Positions 3,060 through 45,290 of a stretch of DNA of 45,334 nucleotides are shown here, piece after piece. Within the stretch, counting starts at the first letter, position 1. The number at the start of each line of letters is the position of its first letter. Under the pieces are notes generated by a model. The model did no database searches. It was not told the DNA's origin and was given only the letters and a program-made list of their open reading frames with translations. Origin of the DNA: Clostridia bacterium (lineage in GTDB: Bacteria; Bacillota; Clostridia; Oscillospirales; CAG-272); NCBI GenBank assembly GCA_017619885.1, contig JAFZRM010000213.1:1-45334 (forward strand). Direction: 5' to 3'. Position numbers and translations under genes: made by a program.

Positions 3060-5156
3060 ATGAACAAGATTTACATCGACGTTATGACCCTGCCGGCGGC
3101 GATGATAGAGGGTACCGATCCTTTGCCGAGCTTCCGCAGGATGACGGGCTTCGGCCTGTTTTCCACGAAACCCGGCTTCCCGGAGGAGGCGAAAACAGAC
3201 CTAGGCACCTGCACGCGCACGCTGCCGTACCGCATACAGGACAGATACGGCAGAAAACGCAGGATGACTGAACTGAAGACCGTCGTGCTCGAAAACGAGC
3301 ATCTGAAGGCGACGTTCGTGCCGTCCTTCGGCGGCAAGCTCTGGTCGCTGTACGACAAGGACAACCGCCGCGAGGTGTTGATGAGCAACCCGGTCGTCCA
3401 GCCCGGGAACCTTGCGATCAGGAACGCCTGGACCTCCGGCGGCATCGAATGGAATTTCGGCTCGGCCGGTCACACTTATTTCTGCTGTGACGACGTCTGG
3501 GCGGCAATACTTACCGACCCTGACGGCGATAAATTCCTGCGCATCTACGAGTTCGAGCGTGCGAAAGAATGCTTTTTCGCAGTCGATTTCCACCTGCCCG
3601 AGGGCAGCCGTCAGCTTTTTTCGCACGTCAGACTGACCAATCCGGGCGAGGATACGACGACTTACTGGTGGAGCAACGTCGCGATCCCGGACGACGGCGG
3701 GACGCGCGTGCTGTCGTCGTCGGAGGACGTGATCGTCTTCTGCGGCGGCGCAGCTTCGTATGAAAAGCTGCCGCACCTGTCCGAGATGGACGGCGATATG
3801 TCGTATCCGCACAACGCGACGCGCAGCTTCGATTACTTTTTCCAGCCGCCCGAGGGCGTGAAGACGACGTGGGAGAGCGGAGTCGACAAAAACGGCTTCG
3901 CGTTCTACGACAGATCGACCGCGCCGCTCGTATATCATAAAATGTTCTGCTGGGGCAGTCACCGCGGCGGCATCCGCTGGCAGCAGCACCTGTCCGACGG
4001 CGACCGCGGCAGATACATAGAACTGCAGGCGGGCATCGCGCGCAGTCAGCTGCACGACAAGCCTTTTCCGGCACACTCGTCGTACGAATGGACGCAGTGC
4101 TTCGGCGGCACGTACGTCGACCCCGGCATGGTCCACGGGCTGACGCTGAGTGAAGCGAACGCGAGATTCGCGCTTCACGTGCAGGAGCTGATCCCGGAAA
4201 ATCAGTTACTCAGCCTCGATAAAAAATACGCCGCCTGCGCGCAGATAAAGGTAAAAGAAGAAAATATAGTCCACCGCGGCTCGGGCTGGGGCGCGCTTCA
4301 TCTGCGGCTCTGCCCGCAGATCTCGGTGCCGCTGTGCTTCCCCGACGACTCGCTCGGGGAGGAGCAGAGACCGTGGCTTCATCTGCTCGAGCGCGGCATT
4401 CTGCCCGGATCGGATCCGTCAGGGATCTCGGTCTCGTGGATGACGTCGGAAAAATGGCTTCGACTGCTGCAGACAAGCGTATCCGGAAAGGGCGGCGACG
4501 ACTGGGCGGCGCAGCTTCATTACGGCAACGCGCTGTTCGAGTTCTGGGACAACGCGCACACCGTGCCGACGGCGCGTTATTTCGACGGCGCCGAATATGA
4601 AAAACGCGCCGCTGAGGCGTGGAAGCGCTCCGACGCGCTCTGCCCGAACGTATGGGCGAGGCGCAACCTCGCGGTGCTGTACCGCCTGCGCGGCGAAAAC
4701 GAGCTTGCTGAGCAGACTTACCGATCCGTGTTCTCGCTGCCCGCCTCGGTCTGCGATCCGTGCTTCGCGTCCGAATATATGGGCTGGCTGATCGGCGCCG
4801 GAAAACACGAAGAAGCGCTGCGTCTGTACGAAGGGCTGCCGGAGAATATCCGCGGCGCCGATCGCGTGACGCTTCACGCGCTGCGCTGCGCCGTAAAGCT
4901 GGGCAGGGAAGTGCTGCCCGGCGGATTTGAGCGCGAATACGCGGCGATAAGAGAGGGCGAGACGTCGCTGTCCGATCTGTGGTTCGAGTATCACGCGAGA
5001 CGGCTCGCGGCTGAGCGCGGTGAGGATTTCGACGCGCTCGGCAAGGAGGAAAAAGCGGCTCTGACGGAGCGTGCGGAAGAACTTTTCCCGCCGCCGCACG
5101 GTATAGATTTCCGCATGAGCTATGACAAAAACAAAAAATACCGCGTGTCGGAATAA
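3060..5156 (+). CDS. DUF5107-like protein with C-terminal TPR-like helical repeats
   Basis: 698-aa ORF. The N-terminal half (LENEHLKATFVPSFGGKLWSLYDK...GGIEWNFG) resembles mutarotase-like DUF5107 proteins, and the C-terminal half is helical-repeat-like. Sits 5 nt after the PHP gene, so likely in the same operon. Confidence 0.5.
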   Translation: MNKIYIDVMTLPAAMIEGTDPLPSFRRMTGFGLFSTKPGFPEEAKTDLGTCTRTLPYRIQDRYGRKRRMTELKTVVLENEHLKATFVPSFGGKLWSLYDKDNRREVLMSNPVVQPGNLAIRNAWTSGGIEWNFGSAGHTYFCCDDVWAAILTDPDGDKFLRIYEFERAKECFFAVDFHLPEGSRQLFSHVRLTNPGEDTTTYWWSNVAIPDDGGTRVLSSSEDVIVFCGGAASYEKLPHLSEMDGDMSYPHNATRSFDYFFQPPEGVKTTWESGVDKNGFAFYDRSTAPLVYHKMFCWGSHRGGIRWQQHLSDGDRGRYIELQAGIARSQLHDKPFPAHSSYEWTQCFGGTYVDPGMVHGLTLSEANARFALHVQELIPENQLLSLDKKYAACAQIKVKEENIVHRGSGWGALHLRLCPQISVPLCFPDDSLGEEQRPWLHLLERGILPGSDPSGISVSWMTSEKWLRLLQTSVSGKGGDDWAAQLHYGNALFEFWDNAHTVPTARYFDGAEYEKRAAEAWKRSDALCPNVWARRNLAVLYRLRGENELAEQTYRSVFSLPASVCDPCFASEYMGWLIGAGKHEEALRLYEGLPENIRGADRVTLHALRCAVKLGREVLPGGFEREYAAIREGETSLSDLWFEYHARRLAAERGEDFDALGKEEKAALTERAEELFPPPHGIDFRMSYDKNKKYRVSE

Positions 5157-14629: not shown

Positions 14630-14658
14630 TTGACAAACGCCGCCGTATGGGGTATAAT
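14630..14658 (+). promoter_or_regulatory. Sigma-A-type promoter of the discoidin lipoprotein gene
   Basis: TTGACA (14630..14635), a 17-nt spacer, then TATAAT (14653..14658). RBS AAAGGAG follows at 14676..14682. Confidence 0.7.
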
Positions 14659-14690: not shown

Positions 14691-17000
14691 GTGAAAAACA
14701 GGATATTGAAACGCGTGACGGTCTTTGCCGCGCTGCTCGCCGCGCTGATTCTCGGCTGCGTTGCATGCACTTCGGGCGACGCGGACACACAGACCTTAAC
14801 GGAGCCGGAGACGACGGCGCCCGCCCCGGACACAGCGCCGGAGACGGAGCCGGACGAGCAGCCCGACGTGTTCCCGGAGGGGGACAACATAGAGATAGGC
14901 ATATTCTACGAGCCTCCGCACGATTTCACAACGCCGGAGCAGTACGACTGGATCCGCGACGCGAATATAACGTTCATCGAAGTGACGAACGGCAGCGGGG
15001 CGATAAACAAAGAGGTCAGCAACGAGCAGATAAGGCTCGCGAAGGAACGCGGCATAAAGATCACGTACAACGCCGGAGTCGACGGCAAAAACCTGCTCGC
15101 TATGACGGAAGACGAGATCACCGGGTACGTGAAAGAACTGGCGAAGGACCCGACGATCACGTCGATGCACGTGAAGGACGAACCGGCCCAGCCGTGGACG
15201 TACGCGAAAGTCTGCGCCGCGGTGAAGAGGGGCGGTCTGATGCCGAGGCTCAATTTCCTGCCGTATTTCGCGACGTGGATATTCGACGATTACAAGGGCT
15301 TCATCGAGGATACGATCGTCGCCGCGGGCAAGGAGGATTACGGTTATCTCAGCTACGACCATTATCCGTACCCGTATGACGGCGGCGATCCGGACACGAT
15401 GTTTCACAATCTCGAAATAATCAGACAGATCGGTCTGAAATACGACGTGCCGACGGCGTGCTACATCCAGTCGATCGGAGAACATAACAACTTCCGCCGC
15501 ACCAACGGCAACGAGATAAGATATCAGACATCGACCTGTCTCGCTTACGGCGTCAAATCCATGACGTATTTCACGTGGTGGACGACCGGCTTCTGCGATC
15601 CCGCGGATTACGCGATAATCTCGCCGTACGGCGACAAGACCGACATCTACGACGACGTCGCGCAGATAAACGCCGATATACTCAGGGTCGGCACGCTGCT
15701 GCGCAGGCTCGACGCGGTAAAGGTCTATCATACGAAGGGCACGGAGCAGAGCGTAACGCGCTGCACGAGCGACGACGTCCCCTTCTACGGAAAAAACGCG
15801 TTAATCATCTCGCTCATGGAGGACCGGGAGACCGGGCGCGACTACGTCATGCTCGTGAACAAGCATTATAAGAAAGGGGTCACCTGCGAATTCACCGTGT
15901 CCGACAGGATAACGCAGCTGTTCGACTGCACGGAAGGCAGCTACGATCCCGTGGATATATCGACCGGCAGTTTCACCGCGACGTTCAAGCCGGGAGGCTT
16001 CAGGATATACGCCGTCGGCAAAAAGGACAATATAGTCGTCCGGGAATACGACGCCGGCGAAAACATAGCGCAGGACAAGGCGGTCGCCGCGGCGGCGGTA
16101 TATCCCGGAGCGGGCTTTTACACGTACTGCGTAAACGACGGCGTGCGCGTCGGCTCCTCCGGAGAATCATACGGCTACCGCAGCGAGGCCGACACCGGAT
16201 ATCTCGAGGTCGATCTCGGCAGAGTCACGGCGTTCGACCGCGTGGATATCTACCCGACCGGGACGAATTATACGAGAGGGCAGATGTTCCCGCGCGACTT
16301 CAGAATAGAAGTTTCATCGGACGGCAAAACGTATGAAACTCTGGTCGAGCGCAAAGAATACGACGACGCGCTTCACGCGATCCCGTCGTTCACGTTCGAC
16401 CGCACCGAGGGCAGATACGTCCGGCTGACGGTCCTGCGCGGGTGCGAACAGGGCGGATTCGAGATCGGCGAGATCGAGATTTATAACGGAGGATCCGTCC
16501 CGGCGCCCGACAACGGCGCGTTCTACACCGACCCCACCGCCGTTGAAAAGGGGACGAACGTGGCGTTGGGCAAGGCTGTCAGAGTCAGGACGGAGCTTGG
16601 CGGAGCGTGGCGCAAGGAGAATCTGACGGACGGCGACAGAGAGACGAATTACAGCTCCGCGCTGAATCAGCATGAAACGGAGGACGGCGAGGAGTGGATC
16701 CTGATCGACCTTGCCGCGCCGCTCGAATTCAACGAAGTCGACGTGTACCCGCGCGGCGACGGTCAGAATTTCCCGTATAAATTCAGGATCGAGATATCAG
16801 ACGACGGAAAAAACTTCACGAGCGTATACGAGTGCGACGTGCCGGAGCTGCCGGCAAACCGCAAGCCGTCGCTTTGCGCGCTCGATAAAACGTACAAATC
16901 GAGATACGTCCGCGTGTTCGCGTATAAGCTCCGCGATCAGGAGGGCTTCAACGACGGACATATCTTCCAGGCGTCGGAAGTCGAGATATACAACAAGTGA
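14691..17000 (+). CDS. Secreted lipoprotein: glycosidase-like N-terminal domain plus two F5/8 type C (discoidin) domains
   Basis: GTG start. Signal and lipobox MKNRILKRVTVFAALLAALILGC. Two C-terminal repeats carry the pattern D(I/V)YP.G....P..FRIE(V/I)S.DGK.(Y/F), typical of discoidin/CBM32-like domains. Confidence 0.6.
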   Translation: MKNRILKRVTVFAALLAALILGCVACTSGDADTQTLTEPETTAPAPDTAPETEPDEQPDVFPEGDNIEIGIFYEPPHDFTTPEQYDWIRDANITFIEVTNGSGAINKEVSNEQIRLAKERGIKITYNAGVDGKNLLAMTEDEITGYVKELAKDPTITSMHVKDEPAQPWTYAKVCAAVKRGGLMPRLNFLPYFATWIFDDYKGFIEDTIVAAGKEDYGYLSYDHYPYPYDGGDPDTMFHNLEIIRQIGLKYDVPTACYIQSIGEHNNFRRTNGNEIRYQTSTCLAYGVKSMTYFTWWTTGFCDPADYAIISPYGDKTDIYDDVAQINADILRVGTLLRRLDAVKVYHTKGTEQSVTRCTSDDVPFYGKNALIISLMEDRETGRDYVMLVNKHYKKGVTCEFTVSDRITQLFDCTEGSYDPVDISTGSFTATFKPGGFRIYAVGKKDNIVVREYDAGENIAQDKAVAAAAVYPGAGFYTYCVNDGVRVGSSGESYGYRSEADTGYLEVDLGRVTAFDRVDIYPTGTNYTRGQMFPRDFRIEVSSDGKTYETLVERKEYDDALHAIPSFTFDRTEGRYVRLTVLRGCEQGGFEIGEIEIYNGGSVPAPDNGAFYTDPTAVEKGTNVALGKAVRVRTELGGAWRKENLTDGDRETNYSSALNQHETEDGEEWILIDLAAPLEFNEVDVYPRGDGQNFPYKFRIEISDDGKNFTSVYECDVPELPANRKPSLCALDKTYKSRYVRVFAYKLRDQEGFNDGHIFQASEVEIYNK

Positions 17001-17001
17001 A

Positions 17002-17210
17002 AGCTAAATTCGCCTTCGGCGAGCTAAATTCGGCTGCGCCGAGCTAAATTGAGCTTCGCTCAGCTAAATTCGCCTTCGGCGAGCTAAATTGACCTTCGGT
17101 CAGCTAAATTGAGCTTCGCTCAGCTAAATTCGCCTTCGGCGAGCTAAATTGACCTTCTGTCAGCTAAATTCGGCTGCGCCGAGCTAAATTCGCCTTCGGC
17201 GAGCTGAATT
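17002..17210. repeat. Tandem array of about 10.5 copies of a 20-bp unit: AGCTAAATT plus an 11-nt mini-palindrome
   Basis: Read directly from the sequence. Units start at 17002, 17022 and so on up to 17182, with a degenerate AGCTGAATT at 17202. The palindromes are CGCCTTCGGCG, CGGCTGCGCCG, GAGCTTCGCTC and GACCTTCGGTC (one copy reads GACCTTCTGTC). Confidence 0.95.
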
Positions 17211-17243
17211 TAACTGCGAGCGTATGAGAGCAATTTAGATGAT

Positions 17244-17294
17244 AAAAAAAGCCCGCTTTGACGAACTCCGGGATTGGAAGCCGTCAAAGCGGGT
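17244..17294 (-). terminator. Intrinsic terminator (GH43 gene; probably also stops the convergent + strand gene)
   Basis: 12-bp stem CCCGCTTTGACG/CGTCAAAGCGGG (17252..17293) around an 18-nt loop. The A7 run at 17244..17250 gives a T7 tail on the minus strand. Confidence 0.6.
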
Positions 17295-17302
17295 ACGTTA
17301 TT

Positions 17303-18364
17303 TCAATCAAAATCCTCTATACGCCATTCGTCGCGCCAGTCGATGACGACGCGCTCTCCCTCGAAGCGGAGCGGCAGCCAAACGTAATCGGCGAGCGCCG
17401 TGCGCTCTTTCGGCAGCGATCTCATTATCTCCGACGCCTCCGCGCGCTCTGCCGCGGTGCTGTCGTCGCGGAATAGCAGATCGAATGCGCGCTCGTATTT
17501 TTCGTACGGCACGTGCATCGCGTTCGGCATCCAGCGGTCGGCGCAGGCGATATACAGATCCTTTTTGCCGGGAACCTTGAACACGCTCGAAATCTGACTG
17601 TGAAACGACGTGCGGCTCGTGTCCGACGGGTGCGGGTCGCCGAGCACGGTGTAAGGACCGTGCCAGGTGTCGGCGACGGCGGCCTCCGACGGGTTCGGCA
17701 TATAGCCCGTCGTGCCCGACGTTATCAGATAATGCTTTCCGCCGCGGACGAAATGCGCCGTCGCCTCGCGTACGTACGGCGGATGACTGCGCGGGAAATG
17801 CGTCGAATAATAGCCGGTGACGTCCGTGTAATCAGGAGTCAGATCGGCGCAGATCGTCTCGGAATGCACGCGCTCGAAGTAGTAATACGCCTTGCCGTCG
17901 GGCGCGACGGCGAGATCGAAATCCCCGGCGCTCATGCCGAGCGGATAAAGCCGCTCGCGCACGATCGTGTAAGGCCCGGTGAAGACGTCCGCGGTCAGCA
18001 CCGTTTCGCTCTGCGTGCCGTCCTTTTCCATGATCTTGAGCCAGCAGACGAACTTTTTCGTTTTTTTGTTGTATATGATATGCGGGCGGTCCATCATCGA
18101 CGACGGATGTATGCTGCTGAGCTCGTTTTCCGTGTCGGGCGGTATGATCAGTCCGAGATCGTCCCAGTTGTACAGATCGGCCGATCTGTACGCGCGGACG
18201 CCCCAGTGCCACACGTTTTTGGCCGGGTCGGTGAACTGCTTGTTCTCCCCGTACCAGTAATAGTATCCGTCAAGATACGTGACTGAGCCGCCGTGCGCCT
18301 GTATGCGCTCGCCCTTCGTGTCGAGCCATACCTGCCCGGGTCTTATACTGCGGTATCGCTGCAT
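17303..18364 (-). CDS. Glycoside hydrolase family 43-like protein
   Basis: 353 aa. The five-bladed-propeller GH43-like N-terminus (WLDTKGERIQAHGGSV..YYWYGE) has no signal peptide. RBS AGGAGA lies upstream. Confidence 0.6.
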   Translation of the reverse strand: MQRYRSIRPGQVWLDTKGERIQAHGGSVTYLDGYYYWYGENKQFTDPAKNVWHWGVRAYRSADLYNWDDLGLIIPPDTENELSSIHPSSMMDRPHIIYNKKTKKFVCWLKIMEKDGTQSETVLTADVFTGPYTIVRERLYPLGMSAGDFDLAVAPDGKAYYYFERVHSETICADLTPDYTDVTGYYSTHFPRSHPPYVREATAHFVRGGKHYLITSGTTGYMPNPSEAAVADTWHGPYTVLGDPHPSDTSRTSFHSQISSVFKVPGKKDLYIACADRWMPNAMHVPYEKYERAFDLLFRDDSTAAERAEASEIMRSLPKERTALADYVWLPLRFEGERVVIDWRDEWRIEDFD

Positions 18365-18398: not shown

Positions 18399-19820
18399 TT
18401 ATTCTGATATCCTGCCTTCGAACAGCACGACGCCGGAGTCGTTCGTCCAGCCGGATTCGCCGGTCGTGATATAGAAACGGAACGGTTCGTCCGCTTTGAA
18501 CACCACCGGATCCGCGGGAACGGCCGTGTCCTTTACGGATATCACAGTGACGGCGGCCGCTTCGACGCCCGTCTTGTCGAGTTTTATCTTGGCTTTCTGG
18601 ATTATGTCGCTGACGTAAAGATCGTCCTTGCCCTCGATCATCCCGCTCAGATCCGCTTTGCCGGCTTCGAAAACGTCGGTTATCCCGAGCGATCCGAGAA
18701 AGCCTTTAAGCTCGTAATTGTCGAGCGACGTCTCCGTCGTGAATTCCGGTATGATGACCATGACGTTTTTTGTCTTTGCCTGCGCGATCTTCTCGGACAG
18801 ACCAGAGGTACTGCCGATAACGAACACCATGTTGACGCCGTTATCCATCGGCACGACCACGAGGCGCGTGTCGGCGTCCTCGTAATAAGCGTAATATTCC
18901 TCGGATTCTATGAAGTTTTTCTTGACCTTCTCGCCGCCTGAGGTCCTGAAATCCCGCTCGCCGATCTCAAAAAACTCGTTTCTCCAGCCGTTTTTGTAGT
19001 ACAGAGCGTTGGCGAGGACGACCGCGAGGCCCTCGGTATCGTAATCGTCGGGGAGTACCTTCGGGATCATGCCTTCCGTCTTTTCGTTCGCCCAGTCGTT
19101 GACTTTCTTTATGATATCGGAGCCGAAAAACGAATCGTACCTGGCGTTGTACATTTCAAGTCTCAGCTTGTACTCGGACTTGAAATCGTCCAGATCGCTG
19201 CGCTTCCAGACGGAATCCGCCACGTGAAGCGCTCCGCCCGGCTTTTTCAGAAAATCAGGGTTGGCGCCGGACTTGATCCGCTCGTCGTATTCGGTCAAGT
19301 CGCGCGCGATCTTGCTGTTGAAGCCTTCCTCGAACGAGTTGAACGATTTGACGTAGTTTTCAAACTCGGAAAGGTCCTTCAGCCCGAGCCCTTCGGTGAA
19401 CTGCTTCAGCGTGTTACCCTCGGCTCCGGCGATCAGCATGCCGAGCGCGTATTTGAAAGAGAGCGGGGAAATGACGTAGTTGCCAGTCTGCGTCCGCTCG
19501 ACGAACTCCGCCAGCTTCAGATCGAACTCGTCAAAGCGCGAAAGTACGCCGCCAGAAGGCTCCGGTCCGGGCTCGGCGGTCGTCTGCTCCGCGCTCGTGG
19601 CGGCTTCCGTTTCGGCAGGCTCAGTTTCTGTCGGCTCCGTCGACGCGCCGGTCGTCTGAGCCGGCTCCGTCAAGGACGGCTCGCCTGTCGCGGCGGTCTG
19701 CGACGGATCCGCGGCGGACGGTCCGCCGGTCTGCGTCCCGGCGCCCGGCGCCTCGGCGCAGGCGGAAAGCGCGGACAGCGCCATAGCGGCGATTATAATA
19801 AGCGTAATTATCTTTTTCAT
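18399..19820 (-). CDS. Serpin-family protease inhibitor, lipoprotein-anchored
   Basis: Signal and lipobox MKKIITLIIIAAMALSALSAC, then a T/E/P-rich linker. The serpin body has hinge GVEAAAVTVI and the C-terminal FKADEPFRFYI motif. RBS GGAGGAG lies upstream. Confidence 0.8.
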   Translation of the reverse strand: MKKIITLIIIAAMALSALSACAEAPGAGTQTGGPSAADPSQTAATGEPSLTEPAQTTGASTEPTETEPAETEAATSAEQTTAEPGPEPSGGVLSRFDEFDLKLAEFVERTQTGNYVISPLSFKYALGMLIAGAEGNTLKQFTEGLGLKDLSEFENYVKSFNSFEEGFNSKIARDLTEYDERIKSGANPDFLKKPGGALHVADSVWKRSDLDDFKSEYKLRLEMYNARYDSFFGSDIIKKVNDWANEKTEGMIPKVLPDDYDTEGLAVVLANALYYKNGWRNEFFEIGERDFRTSGGEKVKKNFIESEEYYAYYEDADTRLVVVPMDNGVNMVFVIGSTSGLSEKIAQAKTKNVMVIIPEFTTETSLDNYELKGFLGSLGITDVFEAGKADLSGMIEGKDDLYVSDIIQKAKIKLDKTGVEAAAVTVISVKDTAVPADPVVFKADEPFRFYITTGESGWTNDSGVVLFEGRISE

Positions 19821-40533: not shown

Positions 40534-42060
40534 TCATTCCCATTCCACTGTTGCCGGGGGCTTTGACGTGATATCGTATACCACGCGGTTGATAGAGCGG
40601 ACCTCGTTCGTGATCCTTCTGCTCGCACGGTCGAGCACTTCGTACGGAACGCGCGTCCAGTCGGCGGTCATGAAGTCGTCCGTCGTCACGGCGCGCAGTG
40701 CGACGGTATAGCCGTACGTACGCGCGTCGCCCATAACGCCGACGCTCTGCGTGTCGGTCAGCACGGCGAAATACTGGCTCGGTCTGTCGCCGGCTTTTTC
40801 AAGCTCTTCTCTGAATATCGCGTCCGCTTCGCGAAGCGTGTCCGCTTTATCCTTCGTTATCTCTCCGATTATCCTCACCGCGAGGCCGGGTCCGGGGAAC
40901 GGCTGGCGCATAACGAGCTTTTCCGGTATGCCGAGCTTCAGACCGACGGCGCGGACCTCGTCCTTGAACAGCTCGCGCAGAGGCTCGACGATGCCCTCAA
41001 AGTCCATCACCGACGGCAGACCGCCGACGTTGTGGTGGCTTTTTATAGTGGACGCGTCGCCTTTGCCGCTCTCCACGACGTCCGGATATATCGTGCCCTG
41101 CACGAGATAATCGACTTTGCCTATGACGCGGCTCTGCTCCTCGAATATCCTGATGAACAGCTCGCCTATGATCTTGCGTTTCTTCTCCGGCTCCTTTACT
41201 CCCGCGAGCGCCGACAGGAACCTGTCTTCGGCGTTTACGCGGATCAGCTTCATGTTGAATTTATCGCGGAAAACGCGCTCGACGTCGTCGCCCTCGTTTT
41301 TGCGCAGCAGCCCGTGATCCACGAAAACACACGTCAGCGCGTCCCCTATGGCGCGGTGCATCAGAACGGCGGCGACGGAGGAGTCCACACCGCCGGACAG
41401 CGCGCACAAAACGCGCTTGCCCTGAAGCTCGCTTCTGTATTTTTCGACCGATCTTTCAATGAAATCATCCGTCCGCCAGTCTCCGGCGCAGCCGCATATA
41501 CTGAACAGAAAGTTGTGAAGCATCGTTTTTCCGTATTCGGTGTGCGTCACCTCGGGGTGGAACTGCACGCCGTATATCCGGCGGGACACGTCCGCCATTG
41601 CGGCGCAGGGGCAGTTGTCCGTGTGCGCGGTGACGTCAAAACCGTCCGGCACGGCTTTTACGTAATCCGTGTGGCTCATCCAGCAGACGCTCTGCGACGG
41701 CACTTTGTCAAACAGTTTGCCGCCTCCCGTGTAAACTACGGTCTTGCCGTATTCGCTTATGTTTCCGGCGGAGCATATCTGTCCGCCCGCCATATACGCG
41801 ATCAGCTGATGACCGTAGCAGATGCCGAGTACGGGAATGCCGGCGTCGAGTATGCCCTTGTCGTAATGCGGCGAGGTCTCGTCGTAAACGCTGTTCGGAC
41901 CGCCGGTGAATATCACGCCTTTATAGCCCCGCTCCTTTATTTCGGCGAGGCTGATTTTGTTATAGGGGAATATCTCGGCGAAAACGCCCTGCTCGCGCAC
42001 GCGGCGCGCTATAAGCAGATCGTACTGGCCGCCGAAATCGAGAACGAGTATCTTTTCCAT
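40534..42060 (-). CDS. guaA: GMP synthase (glutamine-hydrolysing)
   Basis: The N-terminal GATase region contains GICYGHQL. The ATP-PPase P-loop is [10 protein letters not shown]. The C-terminus reads [12 protein letters not shown]. Confidence 0.95.
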
Positions 42061-43478
42061 TATACCGATATCTCCGAATCCATATCTTTAGCCTGCGCGA
42101 TGATCGGCGCAAGCTTGTTAACGTATCTTTCGACCTGCTCGCCGCATCTGCCGGTGTAAAGCGACGGGTCGAGCACCGAGTTCATCTCGTCCTCGGTCAT
42201 GCCGAATTCGGGATGCTTTGAAAGCGAGGAGATCAGATCGCAGCCCTCGCCGTTCTTCATCTTCGCCGTTGCCTCCATCGAAGCCTGTCTTATGACCTCG
42301 TGAAGCTTCTGCCTGTCGCCGCCGCGCTTGACGGCTTCCATCAGCAGATTTTCCGTTGCGATGAACGGCAGATATTCGCGGACCGTGCGTTCGATTATCT
42401 TTTCGTTCACGACCATGCCGGACGTGACGTTCATCATCAGCCGCAGAATCGAGTCGGCGCACAAAAACCCTTCGGGCATCGAGATGCGGCGGTTTGCCGA
42501 ATCGTCGAGCGTGCGCTCGAGCCACTGAGACGACGCGGTCATATAAGCGTTGGCGCCGTCCGCCATAAGATAGCGGGACAGAGAACAGATGCGCTCGCAT
42601 CTCATCGGGTTGCGCTTGTACGCCATCGCGGACGAGCCGATCTGGCTGCTCTCGAACGGCTCCTCGACCTGTCTGTCGTGCTGAAGCAGACGCATGTCGC
42701 AGCCGAATTTGTAAGCGCTCTGCGCTATCGCAGACAAGGCGTTCAGGATCGCCGAATCCGTCTTTCTCGTGTAAGTCTGACCGCAGACGTCAAAGCAGGA
42801 ATCAAAGCCGAACTGCTCACAGATCATTTCGTTCATGCGGTCGATCTTTTCGCCGTCGCCGCCGAAAAGATCCATGAAGCTCGCCTCGGTGCCGGTCGTT
42901 CCGCGGCAGCCGAGCAGCTTCAGCCTGCCGGCGGTGAAATCGAGCTCCTCCAGATCCGATACGAGATCCTGCAGCCACAGAGACGCGCGTTTGCCGACGG
43001 TCACGAGCTGCGCCGGCTGATAATGCGTATAGCCGAGCGTCGGCAGATCCTTGTATTTGAGCGCGAACGCGGCTAGATTCTTTATGACGCAGAGCAGCTC
43101 GGCGCGTATGTATGCGAGCGCGTCGCGGTAGATTATCATATCAGCGTTGTCGGTGACGTAGCAGCTCGTCGCGCCGAGGTGGATTATCCCCGCCGCCGAC
43201 GGCGCCGCCTTTCCGTACGCGTGCACGTGAGCCATGACGTCGTGGCGGACCCTTTTCTCGTCCTCCGCGACGAAGTCGTAGTCGATGTCCGTTACGTGCG
43301 CTTCAAGCTCCGCTATCTGTTCCGCACTCACCGGCAGACCGAGCTCGTGCTCGGCGCGTGCGAGGGCGACCCAGAGCCGCCTCCACGTCTGATAACGCGT
43401 GTCGGCGGAAAAGAGCCCGAGCATGTATCCCGAAGCGTAACGCGACGATAACGGCGATTCGTATTTGTCCCTGCTCAT
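42060..43478 (-). CDS. purB: Adenylosuccinate lyase
   Basis: N-terminal SPLSSRYAS... and the fumarate-lyase signature region [11 protein letters not shown]. The stop overlaps the guaA start (TAATG). RBS AGGAGGA lies upstream. Confidence 0.93.
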
Positions 43479-43496
43479 AAGATCCTCCTGTTTATC

Positions 43497-45290
43497 TTAT
43501 TCGGAAACGGCCGTCAGACACAGAAACGTCATCCCGTGACCTGTGACGACGGGTTTGTCGTAATGCTTTATCTCAAAGCCGTTGTTATTAAACGAGTATT
43601 CGTCAAGAACTATCTGCGTGCACGACTCGACCGCGTATCCGTCGACGGCGATCTGCCACTCGTCTCCGCCTCTGTTGACGACGGACATGAACAGATGATC
43701 GCCGTGATCGGTGCAGAGCACGTCGAGGTCGCGGTTATCCGCCGAGCACTCCACTACGGTGCCGTCCGTGTGTCCGTGGAGCAGGCGGAACGCCTCGCCG
43801 GCGCACTCGACGGTGCAGGCGGCGCCGTTCACGGTTATCATACCTTCGCTTACCGGCATGAAGAAACGCGCGTCGGTCACCCCGTATTTTTCATAAGAGC
43901 GGGCGAAGAAGTGGAATTCCAGGATGTTAGACAAGAACATCGCGTTGTTCGCGTCGCAGCCCCAGCTGAAATTCCATTCGTCGACGTTGACGGGCATTTC
44001 GACTCCCGCGAAAAGCTCGTCGTGTACGTACGCGAGACCTTCGTCGACGCCGCCGTAAAACGATCCCGGTATGCCGTCTTCGGCGGCCTTTCGCTCGGCT
44101 TCGCTGCCGGGTTTGCTGCCGCAGTAGCGGTGATAAGAAACGCAATCGTATCTGCATTCGAGCGTGTTCACGAAGTCGCGGCTCCAGCCGCGCAGACCCG
44201 TGTCCGCCACGACGCCGAGGCAGACCGTTATGCCGTCGTCCGCCGTGCGCATGGCGTTTACGATCTCGTTCGTGCGCTTCGCGGCCTTCACGCCGTCGTT
44301 CTGATATTCGTATCCGAAATAATATACCTCGTTGCCGACGTAGAAATATTTGACGCCGAACGGCTCCTTGAAGCCCATAGCCGCGCGCTTCGCGCCGTAT
44401 TCCGTGTCCGTGCCGCCGTTGCAGTATTCGACGAGACGGCGCGCGTCCTCGCCGTCGGAGAGGACTATGCTCACCGTGAATTCCGGCTCGGCGCCGACCT
44501 TTTGGCAGAGCATGATGAATTCGTTAAGACTTATATCCGCGCAGTCCTGATGATAGGTGTCGCGCAGCATGAAATCCTTTATCGATCCGTCAAACGGCGT
44601 CCGCAGATCCGCGGGCTTCAGGCATTGTTTCCAGTCGAAATGGTCGGCGCAGCAGCCGCCCGGGAAGCGTATCGACGTCGGGGCGATGCGCTTCAGCGCC
44701 TCTATGACGTCGACCCGCATGCCGTAATAATTATCGGCGGGCATAAGCGACGCCGCGAAGACGTCCGCCACACCCGAAGCCGACACGAAAAACGTGCCGT
44801 TTTGTACGTCTTTTCCTTCGAAGGTGAACGAAAGCTCTTTGTAATCTTGTCCGTCGTCGTTTAAAACGAACGTCTGCTCAAGCCCCGGTACGCCGAAGGT
44901 CACTGCGCACTCGCCCGACGGCCTGACGAGGATCTTAGCCTCGTACTGCCTGCCGGCTTCAAGGACGATGACGTCGGAGCTCTGCCGGATCGTGCCGTTG
45001 GTCAGCCGCACGTAGTTGCTGCCGCAGGGGCTGTACTTCTTTTTCTGACGGTATTTCGCGCCCTCGCACTCCCAGCCGTAAGGGCTCTTTTGGTCGCCGG
45101 ACAGGAATTTGCGGTTGTTCAGCATCTGCGCCGAAAGACCGCCGAAAAATCCCTTTCGCGTGACCTCGGCGTTCACGCCGAAAAGTCCGTTCTGAAATCC
45201 GTAAGTTTTCTCACCCGCGGTCACGTTCACGACCGGCAGATCCTTGCCGTAATTTTCAATTTTGACGGTTTCGGTCATCTCGGTGCTCAC
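43497..45290 (-). CDS. Alpha-L-arabinofuranosidase-like glycoside hydrolase (GH51-like)
   Basis: 597 aa. YVGNEVYYFG (acid/base-type GNE) and VDEWNFSWG (nucleophile-type DEWN) fit GH51-like (beta/alpha)8 enzymes. The start is uncertain (GTG 45290 or ATG 45278). Confidence 0.5.
   Translation of the reverse strand: MSTEMTETVKIENYGKDLPVVNVTAGEKTYGFQNGLFGVNAEVTRKGFFGGLSAQMLNNRKFLSGDQKSPYGWECEGAKYRQKKKYSPCGSNYVRLTNGTIRQSSDVIVLEAGRQYEAKILVRPSGECAVTFGVPGLEQTFVLNDDGQDYKELSFTFEGKDVQNGTFFVSASGVADVFAASLMPADNYYGMRVDVIEALKRIAPTSIRFPGGCCADHFDWKQCLKPADLRTPFDGSIKDFMLRDTYHQDCADISLNEFIMLCQKVGAEPEFTVSIVLSDGEDARRLVEYCNGGTDTEYGAKRAAMGFKEPFGVKYFYVGNEVYYFGYEYQNDGVKAAKRTNEIVNAMRTADDGITVCLGVVADTGLRGWSRDFVNTLECRYDCVSYHRYCGSKPGSEAERKAAEDGIPGSFYGGVDEGLAYVHDELFAGVEMPVNVDEWNFSWGCDANNAMFLSNILEFHFFARSYEKYGVTDARFFMPVSEGMITVNGAACTVECAGEAFRLLHGHTDGTVVECSADNRDLDVLCTDHGDHLFMSVVNRGGDEWQIAVDGYAVESCTQIVLDEYSFNNNGFEIKHYDKPVVTGHGMTFLCLTAVSE

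Follow-up and report, generated by a model that had tools for sequence, protein, structure and literature searches.

Organization of the repeat array

The DNA analyzed here, referred to as the window, is the whole 45,334-nucleotide contig JAFZRM010000213.1 of a Clostridia bacterium (assembly GCA_017619885.1; Oscillospirales, CAG-272), in which a row of short tandem repeats lies between the stop codon of a discoidin-domain lipoprotein gene and a terminator-like hairpin shared with a convergent gene (Table 1). Tandem Repeats Finder reports one array only, at 17002-17210, with a period of 20 and 10.4 copies, and also fits a 60-nt period to it (3.5 copies, 90% matches, score 320). Each unit consists of a 9-nt linker, AGCTAAATT, and an 11-nt spacer. 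The exact linker occurs ten times in 20-nt steps (17002 to 17182) and nowhere else in the 45,334 bases, and is followed at 17202 by a degenerate eleventh linker, AGCTGAATT, with one mismatch. When one mismatch is allowed, AGCTAAATT has 16 matches in the window versus 6.0 +/- 2.5 in shuffled sequences; the window contains no second copy of the repeat even at two mismatches, and no arrays of the GTGAAAT type.

The spacers are palindromes with a 4-bp stem and a 3-nt loop, or with six pairs when the flanking U-A and U.G are included. With the spacer types designated A (CGCCTTCGGCG), B (CGGCTGCGCCG), C (GAGCTTCGCTC), D (GACCTTCGGTC), and E (CGCCTGACGGCG, from a related contig described below), and with D* standing for unit 8 (GACCTTCTGTC), the unit order in the window is A B C A D C A D* B A. 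All ten spacers are perfect palindromes except that of unit 8, in which one pair is broken. The loops are TTC or TGC.

An earlier note on this DNA had described about 10.5 tandem 20-bp units starting at 17002, four palindrome types with a broken pair in unit 8 alone, recurrence of the CGCC type at units 1, 4, 7, and 10, the lack of GGA motifs, and a non-coding nature. The spacer sequences and their order agree with this description: ten full units precede the degenerate linker, GGA occurs neither in the loops nor in the linkers, and no open reading frame (ORF) of 40 aa or more runs across the array. One base (A17001) lies between the TGA and the array, and the inverted copy of the core, placed by the note at 17231..17238, is present as a 9-mer at 17232-17240 that deviates from the perfect inverted linker by one mismatch. 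The note had further taken the palindrome types to differ by compensatory changes. The hairpin potential is indeed kept, but the changes within the array are not independent events, since whole hairpin types have been reshuffled.

Because relatives in other genomes were compared, the stretch behind the ten units (17202-17240) can be read as an element centre, a large hairpin, and an inverted linker. The large hairpin is a decayed copy of a family hairpin, GCGAGC-GUAA-GCGAGC with tandem G.A pairs, and the inverted linker is the leftover of an inverted half that the complete element possesses.

A dispersed repeat family in rumen and gut Clostridia

One genome per species was scanned with the pattern AGCTAAATT-N11-AGCTAAATT, that is, two exact linkers 11 nt apart. 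The pattern is biased toward the AGCTAAATT linker, and all family counts given in this paper are lower bounds that refer to the matches listed. The scan yielded at least 117 stretches, nearly all from rumen or gut Clostridia. A family was then defined by at least three AGCTAAATT linkers (one mismatch allowed) with 7-18-nt spacers pairing from their ends, and after filtering it comprises at least 99 loci in at least 73 assemblies, with at least 162 modules and at least 674 linkers, 83.5% of which are exact. All loci are intergenic, with as many as at least five in one metagenome-assembled genome (MAG). The hosts are nearly all rumen or gut Oscillospirales (Ruminococcus, Oscillospiraceae, Faecousia, Acutalibacteraceae, and further Clostridia), the group to which the host of the window also belongs, and one carrier is the complete genome of a cultured isolate, Ruminococcus sp. 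JL13D9, in which a module of 3-4 units, near position 864,950 of NZ_CP162392.1, lies between a TAA stop codon and a terminator in a layout like that of the window. The search of other genomes with the linker-N11 pattern that the earlier note had suggested was thus productive, and the variable parts in the relatives are palindromic, the opposite of which the note had named as speaking against its description.

The commonest form of the element, 160-180 bp long and represented by at least 27 distinct copies, is made up of an S half, in which four forward linkers alternate with small hairpins, a centre (...GCGAATTT-AATTTAGCT), and an L half, in which the four linkers are inverted and the hairpins larger. 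This layout is abbreviated FFFFRRRR. Lone halves, elements in the reverse order, and expanded arrays are also present, and orthologous sites may differ in module content (e.g., loci L008 and L114). By linker, the subfamilies AGCTAAATT, GTGAAAT, and GTGATATT can be distinguished. The window array, with its 11 linkers and its spacers pairing from the ends, falls within the family as defined; three of its four hairpin types (all but GAGCTTCGCTC) occur in other genomes as well, and blastn aligns it with the array L025 of another species at 87.5% identity over 184 nt (E = 3e-49). Its assignment as an expanded small-hairpin (S) module of the dispersed AGCTAAATT family is therefore well supported. 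Expanded arrays of other species, with 7-13 linkers and hence 6-12 spacers, contain their own duplicated blocks and were expanded independently. Most of them follow unrelated housekeeping genes and begin 1-3 nt behind the stop codon. At one locus (L059), the final A of the TAA stop codon is also the first A of the linker.

Scan matches in Nostoc, Bathyarchaeia, and Campylobacter were discounted as unrelated or due to chance, their spacers being non-palindromic. Eight Nostoc genomes (L002, L003, L035, L062, L080, L102, L113, and L116) share a conserved non-coding AGCTAAATT-N11-AGCTAAATT stretch with the spacer CGATACGTGTA, which seems unrelated to the Clostridia family, though conserved across Nostoc species. 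A phage or plasmid origin of the family was also rejected: blastn gave no match in PLSDB or INPHARED, and the viral contigs of IMG/VR contain only two true elements. A search of the literature for the 9-mer linker found nothing.

The identical 9-bp cores and the constant 20-bp spacing in the window led the earlier note to consider iteron-like binding sites, that is, a duplex-DNA array of the centromere-like sopC or parC type occupied by a cooperative replication or partition protein. Tandem units each containing an inverted repeat are indeed found in sopC. However, this phasing is not general: it is constant in this copy only, whereas the spacers in the family range from 7 to 26 nt and the centre-to-centre distances from 16 to 35 bp. 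The compensatory variation of the palindromes would be incompatible with recognition by a sequence-specific dimer, the non-Watson-Crick pairs of the hairpins (G.A and G.U, described below) are strand-specific, the copies are chromosomal and lie behind many unrelated genes, no plasmid matches were obtained, and Pfam annotation reveals no rep or par genes near the window array. We regard this reading as highly improbable.

Variable unit number at the same locus

The array occurs at the same site in four further contigs from other samples, with flanks 92-97% identical to those of the window. One of them (L118, 2,677 bp) encodes a discoidin protein with 97% identity and breaks off within the array behind A B C; the other three (L128, L129, and L130), which span the spacer between the genes, were reached through cluster members of both flanking proteins. 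The array reads A B C A D E (6 units) in L128 and A* B C A D E C A (8 units) in L130, and is interrupted by a 100-N gap in L129. The first five units agree with those of the window, as far as A B C in L118, and the degenerate centre, large hairpin, inverted linker, and terminator are unchanged in all spanning contigs, the centre (17202..17215) being identical in L128 and L130. The locus is a variable-number tandem repeat in which entire units come and go, 6, 8, or 10 of them being present; ten is a plausible count for the window, the counts in the other contigs being different (6 and 8) or cut off by the N gap or the contig end.

In a single comparison of the window with L128, the ends of the spacer (first 101 nt, 99/101 identical; last 101 nt, 100/101 identical) are more alike than the third codon positions of the two flanking genes (95.3% and 89.3% identical), which hints at constraint or homogenization. 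The array is missing at orthologous loci with 65-71% protein identity, one of which retains the upstream HAD-hydrolase neighbour; the element was therefore gained in the lineage of the window. At an array-less discoidin orthologue (L123, 5056-5200), a different, GTGAA-rich stretch with hairpins (GTGAAGCG...GTGAGAAACGTGAAAC...GGGCAGGGTGAAGACCCTGCC) follows the stop codon and might be another repeat type.

These contigs also bear on the idea that the array is an assembly artefact or a meaningless minisatellite private to one strain, either of which the earlier note had regarded as fatal to its description. Short-read assemblies do break or gap inside the array, ten units is the count of this assembly itself, and neither the window-specific junction nor the first three units have an exact match in the metagenome contigs of JGI. 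On the other hand, the array stands at the same site in four contigs from different samples with the same first five units (three in L118), by which an artefact is ruled out as far as the existence of the array is concerned, and the same unit type recurs in at least 73 assemblies including the complete genome of an isolate. The array is thus a variable minisatellite, but neither private to one strain nor a sole copy, and this explanation as a whole is hardly credible.

Hairpin structure and strand signature

In the family, 396 of 522 spacers (76%; 315 distinct) form at least three Watson-Crick pairs from their ends, compared with 12.6 (2.4%) in shuffles. In an ungapped alignment of the 82 distinct 11-nt spacers, 96.7% of the cells are paired, both sides are changed in 141 cells versus 43.6 in shuffles (none of 500 shuffles being as high), and the covariation score is 0.744 versus 0.145 in shuffles, with slid controls at or below 0.15. 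The earlier note's proposal that the variable parts keep stem-forming potential is borne out by this family-wide covariation. Palindromic spacers with such strong covariation mean that the hairpins must form in a single strand.

The large hairpins carry a strand signature. On the top strand of the element they are of the GCGAGC-GUAA-GCGAGC or AUCGAGC-GCA-GCGAGAU type, with tandem G.A pairs and with GNA or GNRA loops closed by C-G; they contain 12 G.U versus 0 A.C pairs on this strand, while the other strand would give C.U mismatches at the G.A positions. These strand-specific pairs point to a single strand rather than to duplex sites. In the small hairpins, G.U and A.C pairs number 6 against 8 and are uninformative for the strand. 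A common polarity is nevertheless seen in every unit, in that the strand reading AATTTAGCT carries the stable C-GNA-G or C-GNRA-G loops. The L half and the leading long hairpin seem optimized for the sense strand, unlike the S modules. With RNA as well as DNA parameters, both strands of 16995-17300 fold more stably than shuffles (four folds, z -4.4 to -6.1), but folding was discarded as a strand test, the minimum-energy structures mixing unit registers and singling out no strand. Position-specific loop-loop complementarity between small and large hairpins was not found beyond a general TTC/GAA bias.

The linkers of the inverted half are exactly complementary to the forward ones, and nested pairing between them is predicted by RNAfold. 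This pairing receives no covariation support within the subfamily, deviations such as AATTTCGCT in the third inverted linker being position-specific and uncompensated.

Relationship to the Gut-1 RNA motif

A cmscan search against Rfam gave three plus-strand matches of the array to Gut-1 (RF01706), with 37.7, 35.1, and 21.4 bits (E = 6e-6 in a search of 451 nt). The alignment spans the full model (positions 1-77) with hairpins and linkers all in register, although the Gut-1 gathering cut-off (50 bits) is not reached and a gathering search of the whole window finds nothing. The Gut-1 consensus consists of three CUUCG-looped hairpins with GUGAAAU between them, and at least three consecutive short hairpins with a conserved linker are likewise present in the ten units of the window. 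The flanks of the Gut-1 seed sequences reveal a wider element: a long hairpin or terminator is followed by forward linkers (GUGAAAU or GUGAUAUU) with small hairpins, the centre GCGAAUAUAAUAUCAC, larger hairpins, and the inverted linker AAUAUCAC, and these elements often lie behind a terminator hairpin or a tRNA. The same layout is kept in the window as a remnant (17202-17240) and in its relatives in full form. In contrast, the linker AGCUAAAUU (the RNA form in the window family) has no occurrence in the Gut-1 seed alignment file, and none of 20 family loci scanned gave an above-threshold Gut-1 match on a AGCTAAATT element. The window array therefore fails formal Gut-1 membership yet has the Gut-1 architecture.

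Both linker types are found together in L047, a Clostridia MAG from goat rumen, where two Gut-1 matches (1439-1526 and 2057-2137, 52 bits, linker GTGAAATA) flank a small RelB/DinJ-like gene on both sides and a AGCTAAATT element (3163-3338) lies 1 kb away. The two subfamilies thus coexist in one genome and, the sample being from goat rumen, Gut-1 is not restricted to the human gut, contrary to its description as a free-standing small RNA of human-gut metagenomes only (Weinberg et al. 2010, PMC2864571), of which a single sentence is the only literature on Gut-1 that was found. Judged from these sequences, the AGCTAAATT family is an uncurated sister subfamily of Gut-1 in which AGCUAAAUU replaces GUGAAAU. 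The statement of the earlier note that the array belongs to no described repeat family no longer holds, Gut-1 being its architectural relative and the array itself a member of a family in at least 73 assemblies.

Genomic context and orientation of the elements

The upstream gene is co-directional with the S module in 70 of 100 cases (p = 8e-5), and between tandem genes 31 S modules are in the sense and 10 in the antisense orientation. Many S modules begin less than 50 nt past a stop codon, and arrays of at least six units lie within 10 nt of the stop more often (5/8) than shorter modules (9/62; Fisher p = 0.006), in a comparison of small numbers that includes the window. The genes upstream of the long arrays are unrelated housekeeping genes (topoisomerase I, phosphofructokinase, ribulose-phosphate epimerase, and rubrerythrin), so that the array is not a regulator of one function. 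GC skew (absolute value above 0.03) favours the same strand by 58 to 14. Since GC skew is confounded with gene orientation, explanations through RNA and through the replication strand are inseparable, and a role of single-stranded DNA is possible.

The element may accordingly be considered as a mobile or recombining unit acting at the DNA level, in which the 9-mer would be the site of a recombinase, a transposase, or another DNA-binding protein, and the hairpins would form in single-stranded DNA, as in REP/RAYT, the ends of IS200/IS605, or attC. The four direct and four inverted sites would then be the two ends of a miniature element and the window array a by-product without a role in RNA. The linkers in both orientations within one element are tolerable for a binder of duplex DNA and not for an RNA binder acting on one transcript; the copies are many per genome, their presence or absence varies among relatives, the module content differs between L008 and L114, and copies stand behind tRNA genes and terminators of differing identity. 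Modules also bracket small accessory genes (PF05635 genes and the RelB/DinJ-like gene in L047), the C-GNA-G loops are on the AATTTAGCT strand, and the AGCTAAATT strand is G-rich in 58 of 72 clear-skew cases. Loops of the C-GNA-G kind form very stable DNA mini-hairpins. Against these points, no recurrent transposase, integrase, or RAYT-like gene was detected within 1.5 kb of the elements at about 100 loci, neither target-site duplications nor defined ends were seen, and true copies number two in IMG/VR and none in PLSDB plasmids or INPHARED phages. Furthermore, the hairpin sequences diverge widely within one genome, unlike products of recent transposition, and both GNRA loops and tandem G.A pairs are hallmarks of RNA. 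A DNA-level origin of this kind is, in our estimation, unlikely.

At five loci (L015 1314-1389, L019 6436-6512, L085 4230-4306, L026 3638-3722, and L030 6761-6836), the element comes right after a tRNA gene followed by its terminator hairpin, the tRNA differing from locus to locus. This could reflect a preference for tRNA- or terminator-proximal sites.

Four-helix-bundle protein genes beside the elements

A gene of the family PF05635 ('23S rRNA intervening-sequence protein') lies 20-200 nt downstream of the L half at no fewer than 11 loci that are not orthologous, without exception on this side and co-oriented (Table 1). It directly follows about a tenth of the elements, in settings after tRNA-Arg, tRNA-Val, or tRNA-Met genes or after none, and at four loci (L085, L086, L105, and L019) modules are present on both sides of it. 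No other protein family recurs near the elements among the matches listed. The protein is a four-helix bundle, whose closest solved structure is the uncharacterized 2rld. The accession is cited in a review of diversity-generating retroelements (PMC10053308), and a literature search found nothing linking PF05635 genes to repeats.

It is conceivable, though we consider it improbable, that Gut-1 and its AGCUAAAUU sister family are the nucleic-acid partner of PF05635 proteins. The 9-nt linkers would then be the repeated putative binding sites of an oligomer, element and gene together an unrecognized ribonucleoprotein or mobile unit, and gene-less copies such as the window array non-autonomous or high-valency derivatives.

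Such genes also enter into a broader proposal, along the lines suggested by the earlier note, in which the array would be a multivalent RNA platform or sponge, the single-stranded AGCUAAAUU linkers being bound repeatedly by an oligomeric RNA-binding protein or by RNAs with AAUUUAGCU, and the ten units providing high valency. This would be consistent with the conservation of the linker in sequence (83.5% exact) and of the hairpins in structure only, with the similar spacing of successive linkers that hairpins of whatever length provide, with the exact complementarity and predicted pairing of the inverted-half linkers, and with PF05635 proteins as candidate nucleic-acid binders encoded nearby. 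However, the array has no promoter of its own and would be an mRNA tail, the upstream genes are unrelated, and the range of 6-10 units among near relatives suggests a weak constraint on valency; GGA and other known protein-binding motifs are absent, the deviations between forward and inverted linkers are position-specific and uncompensated, and the window contains no PF05635 gene. We therefore judge such a platform quite unlikely.

Neighbourhood of the array in the window

The gene downstream of the array, convergent with the discoidin gene (17303..18364, minus strand), encodes a GH43 glycoside hydrolase according to Pfam, and glycoside hydrolases, a serpin, and pyruvate kinase are encoded nearby. 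The earlier note had assigned the hairpin at 17251-17294 to the array transcript as its terminator. The hairpin is real, yet its seven-T run is on the minus strand (17244-17250 being A on the plus strand), for which reason it belongs primarily to the GH43 gene as a terminator; its plus-strand tail is only UACGUUAUUU, a weak U tail. With an A run before the stem and this tail after it on the plus strand, it may act bidirectionally.

A consensus scan found no promoter-like site between 14931 and 17783, the array included. Upstream of the discoidin gene lies a perfect consensus sigma-70 promoter (TTGACA-17-TATAAT, 14630-14658, plus strand), and a near-perfect divergent one (TTGACA-17-TATACT with TG, 14578-14550, minus strand) is directed towards genes for a HAD hydrolase and pyruvate kinase. 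The serpin gene (18399-19820, minus strand; 473 aa, PF00079, E = 4e-55) adjoins the GH43 gene; serpins are uncommon in bacteria. The GC content of the window is 57%, and 40545-43500 is 80% identical in nucleotides to a Ruminococcus MAG, both in keeping with a host from the group that carries the repeat family.

Table 1 Coordinates of the array and its surroundings in the window, of expanded arrays, and of PF05635 genes beside elements at other loci
Feature	Sequence	Position	Strand	Basis
Stop codon (TGA) of the gene 14691..17000, encoding the discoidin-domain (F5/8 type C) lipoprotein	Window	16998..17000	+	ORF list, Pfam PF00754/PF22633
Ten full 20-nt units, AGCTAAATT plus 11-nt palindrome	Window	17002..17201	+	Sequence, Tandem Repeats Finder, family covariation, variant arrays
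Degenerate eleventh linker and element centre, AGCTGAATTTAACT	Window	17202..17215	+	Comparison with 27 canonical elements (canonical centre AGCTnnnnGCGAATTTAATTTAGCT)
Single large-hairpin (L-type) unit, GCGAGCGTATGAGAGC	Window	17216..17231	+	Sequence, comparison with family hairpins
Inverted linker AATTTAGAT, one mismatch from AATTTAGCT	Window	17232..17240	+	Canonical FFFFRRRR layout
Terminator hairpin, 12-13 bp stem, common to the convergent genes (context, outside the repeat)	Window	17251..17294	.	Scan, folding
Expanded array, 13 linkers / 12 spacers	L025	3627-3876
Expanded array, 9-10	L016	4014-4231
Expanded array, 8	L007	53-199
Further expanded array	L057	5342-5472
Further expanded array	L044	3868-3996
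Further expanded array	L087	5258-5532
PF05635 gene	L015	1655-2011
PF05635 gene	L019	5532-5873
PF05635 gene	L085	3487-3843
PF05635 gene	L061	6790-7146
PF05635 gene	L050	5790-6143
PF05635 gene	L114	225-578
PF05635 gene	L069	3508-3858
PF05635 gene	L104	2098-2442
PF05635 gene	L086	837-1181
PF05635 gene	L105	4335-4676
PF05635 gene	L031	855-1187

Proposed nature and fate of the array

The identity of the array as a member of the AGCTAAATT unit family, whose element has a 4 + centre + 4 layout, and as a variable copy at this locus that gains and loses blocks, can be stated with high confidence. Whole units would be gained or lost when the identical linkers undergo slipped-strand mispairing or recombine unequally. 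A mechanism at the level of RNA is put forward more tentatively, and we hold it somewhat less probable than its negation. Because the array begins one nucleotide past the stop codon and the only terminator-like hairpin lies behind it, we infer that the plus strand is transcribed as the 3' untranslated region (3' UTR) of the discoidin mRNA, and the 3' UTR position proposed by the earlier note, between the stop codon and the sole terminator-like hairpin, makes such transcription the natural reading of the layout. Each unit would then fold into a GC-rich mini-hairpin with the AU-rich linkers remaining single-stranded, and the row of hairpins may be a largely tolerated selfish or neutral passenger, as in REP/BIME or BOX, whose main effect would be slower 3'-to-5' decay or the provision of cleavage sites in the linkers, with the unit number possibly tuning this effect. 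For the explanation as a whole, identity and mechanism together, a compromise between the two gradings leaves it slightly favoured.

Several points weigh against the part of this explanation that concerns RNA. Transcription of the plus strand as a 3' UTR and any effect on the mRNA are predictions from the layout. The small hairpins, which are the kind expanded in the window, have UNC or UNNC loops on the sense strand, complementing the GNA and GNRA loops, and such sense loops are not predicted by selection on S-module sense RNA. About a fifth of the S modules with both flanking genes called (15 of 73) are in a divergent-gene setting. Module orientation is confounded with the replication strand, the discordant cases dividing 6 to 9. 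Most canonical elements have a terminator-like hairpin directly upstream of the first unit, and copies of this kind may be poorly transcribed from the upstream gene. Lastly, the 9-mer is strictly conserved in more than 70 species, which would imply a sequence-specific partner and is the strongest sign of one, and a purely passive element would leave this conservation unexplained.

The significance of the family lies first in its relation to Gut-1, an orphan in Rfam since 2010 with the human gut as its only source and no cultivated host. The Gut-1 motif now proves to make up half of a bigger, modular element. Its sister subfamily, set apart by another linker, is spread over no fewer than 73 species-level genomes from rumen and gut Oscillospirales, one of them that of a fully sequenced cultured Ruminococcus, and single copies act as variable-number tandem repeats right behind stop codons. 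The cultured carrier opens the element to experiment, and the PF05635 genes provide a concrete protein candidate. In practical terms, the repeats disrupt short-read assemblies of gut MAGs, contigs ending or being gapped inside them. Should the element be only a REP-like passenger, the outcome would be a useful annotation of a common feature of gut bacteria and no new mechanism.

Comparison with known repeat and hairpin systems

Among the systems worth comparing, Gut-1 shares with the array short GC-rich hairpins that stand in a row and have CUUCG-like loops, an A/U-rich conserved linker ending in AAAU, the continuation of its seed into the centre GCGAAUAUAAUAUCAC, inverted linkers, and larger hairpins as in the canonical elements, and the gut habitat. 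The differences are the linker (GUGAAAU or GUGAUAUU in Gut-1, AGCUAAAUU in the window family) and the extent, the curated model comprising three hairpins, whereas the window has ten units right behind a stop codon.

CsrB and RsmZ, of which the earlier note was reminded, similarly interleave many repeats of a short motif with hairpins. Their GGA, however, is located in the hairpin loops, while the motif of the window is located in the linkers and lacks GGA; moreover, each of these RNAs has a gene to itself, complete with promoter and terminator, and a genome contains one to a few of them, whereas the window array is promoterless and belongs to a family of many copies. The attC sites of integrons resemble the element in lying behind ORFs, in having a conserved structure with a variable sequence, complementary end boxes, and a folded single strand, in which form attC sites are read. 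In contrast to the element, attC has one pair of boxes per site and depends on the IntI integrase and cassette arrays, neither of which was seen within 1.5 kb of the elements.

The repetitive extragenic palindromic (REP) sequences of Enterobacteria and Pseudomonas, with the bacterial interspersed mosaic elements (BIMEs) that they build, are dispersed, multi-copy, and extragenic, as is the family described here, and share with it clusters of direct and inverted units, conserved linkers, a variable cluster size, and a location mostly behind genes. REP/BIME sequences are transcribed as 3' UTRs and can stabilize the upstream mRNA or affect termination and translation. A REP, however, is about 35 nt long, an imperfect palindrome whose sequence is conserved and which has a GTAG-type head. 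The units here differ: their palindromes are 7-18 nt long and free in sequence (315 distinct spacers of 7-26 nt), and the linker is the conserved part. REPs also have a cognate RAYT (Y1 transposase) in the genome; in the 1.5 kb around the present elements, no recurring transposase family was seen.

Finally, the BOX elements of Streptococcus pneumoniae (boxA-boxB(n)-boxC) are likewise modular and intergenic, occur in a Gram-positive host, and are found in many copies beside unrelated genes. They have a variable number of tandem internal modules and ends able to pair. Their modules are 45-60 bp long and conserved in sequence rather than single mini-hairpins, and BOX has no sequence similarity to the family and resides in another host lineage. 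The array is best read as a dispersed REP/BIME- or BOX-like repeat module that may have been enlarged by slippage.

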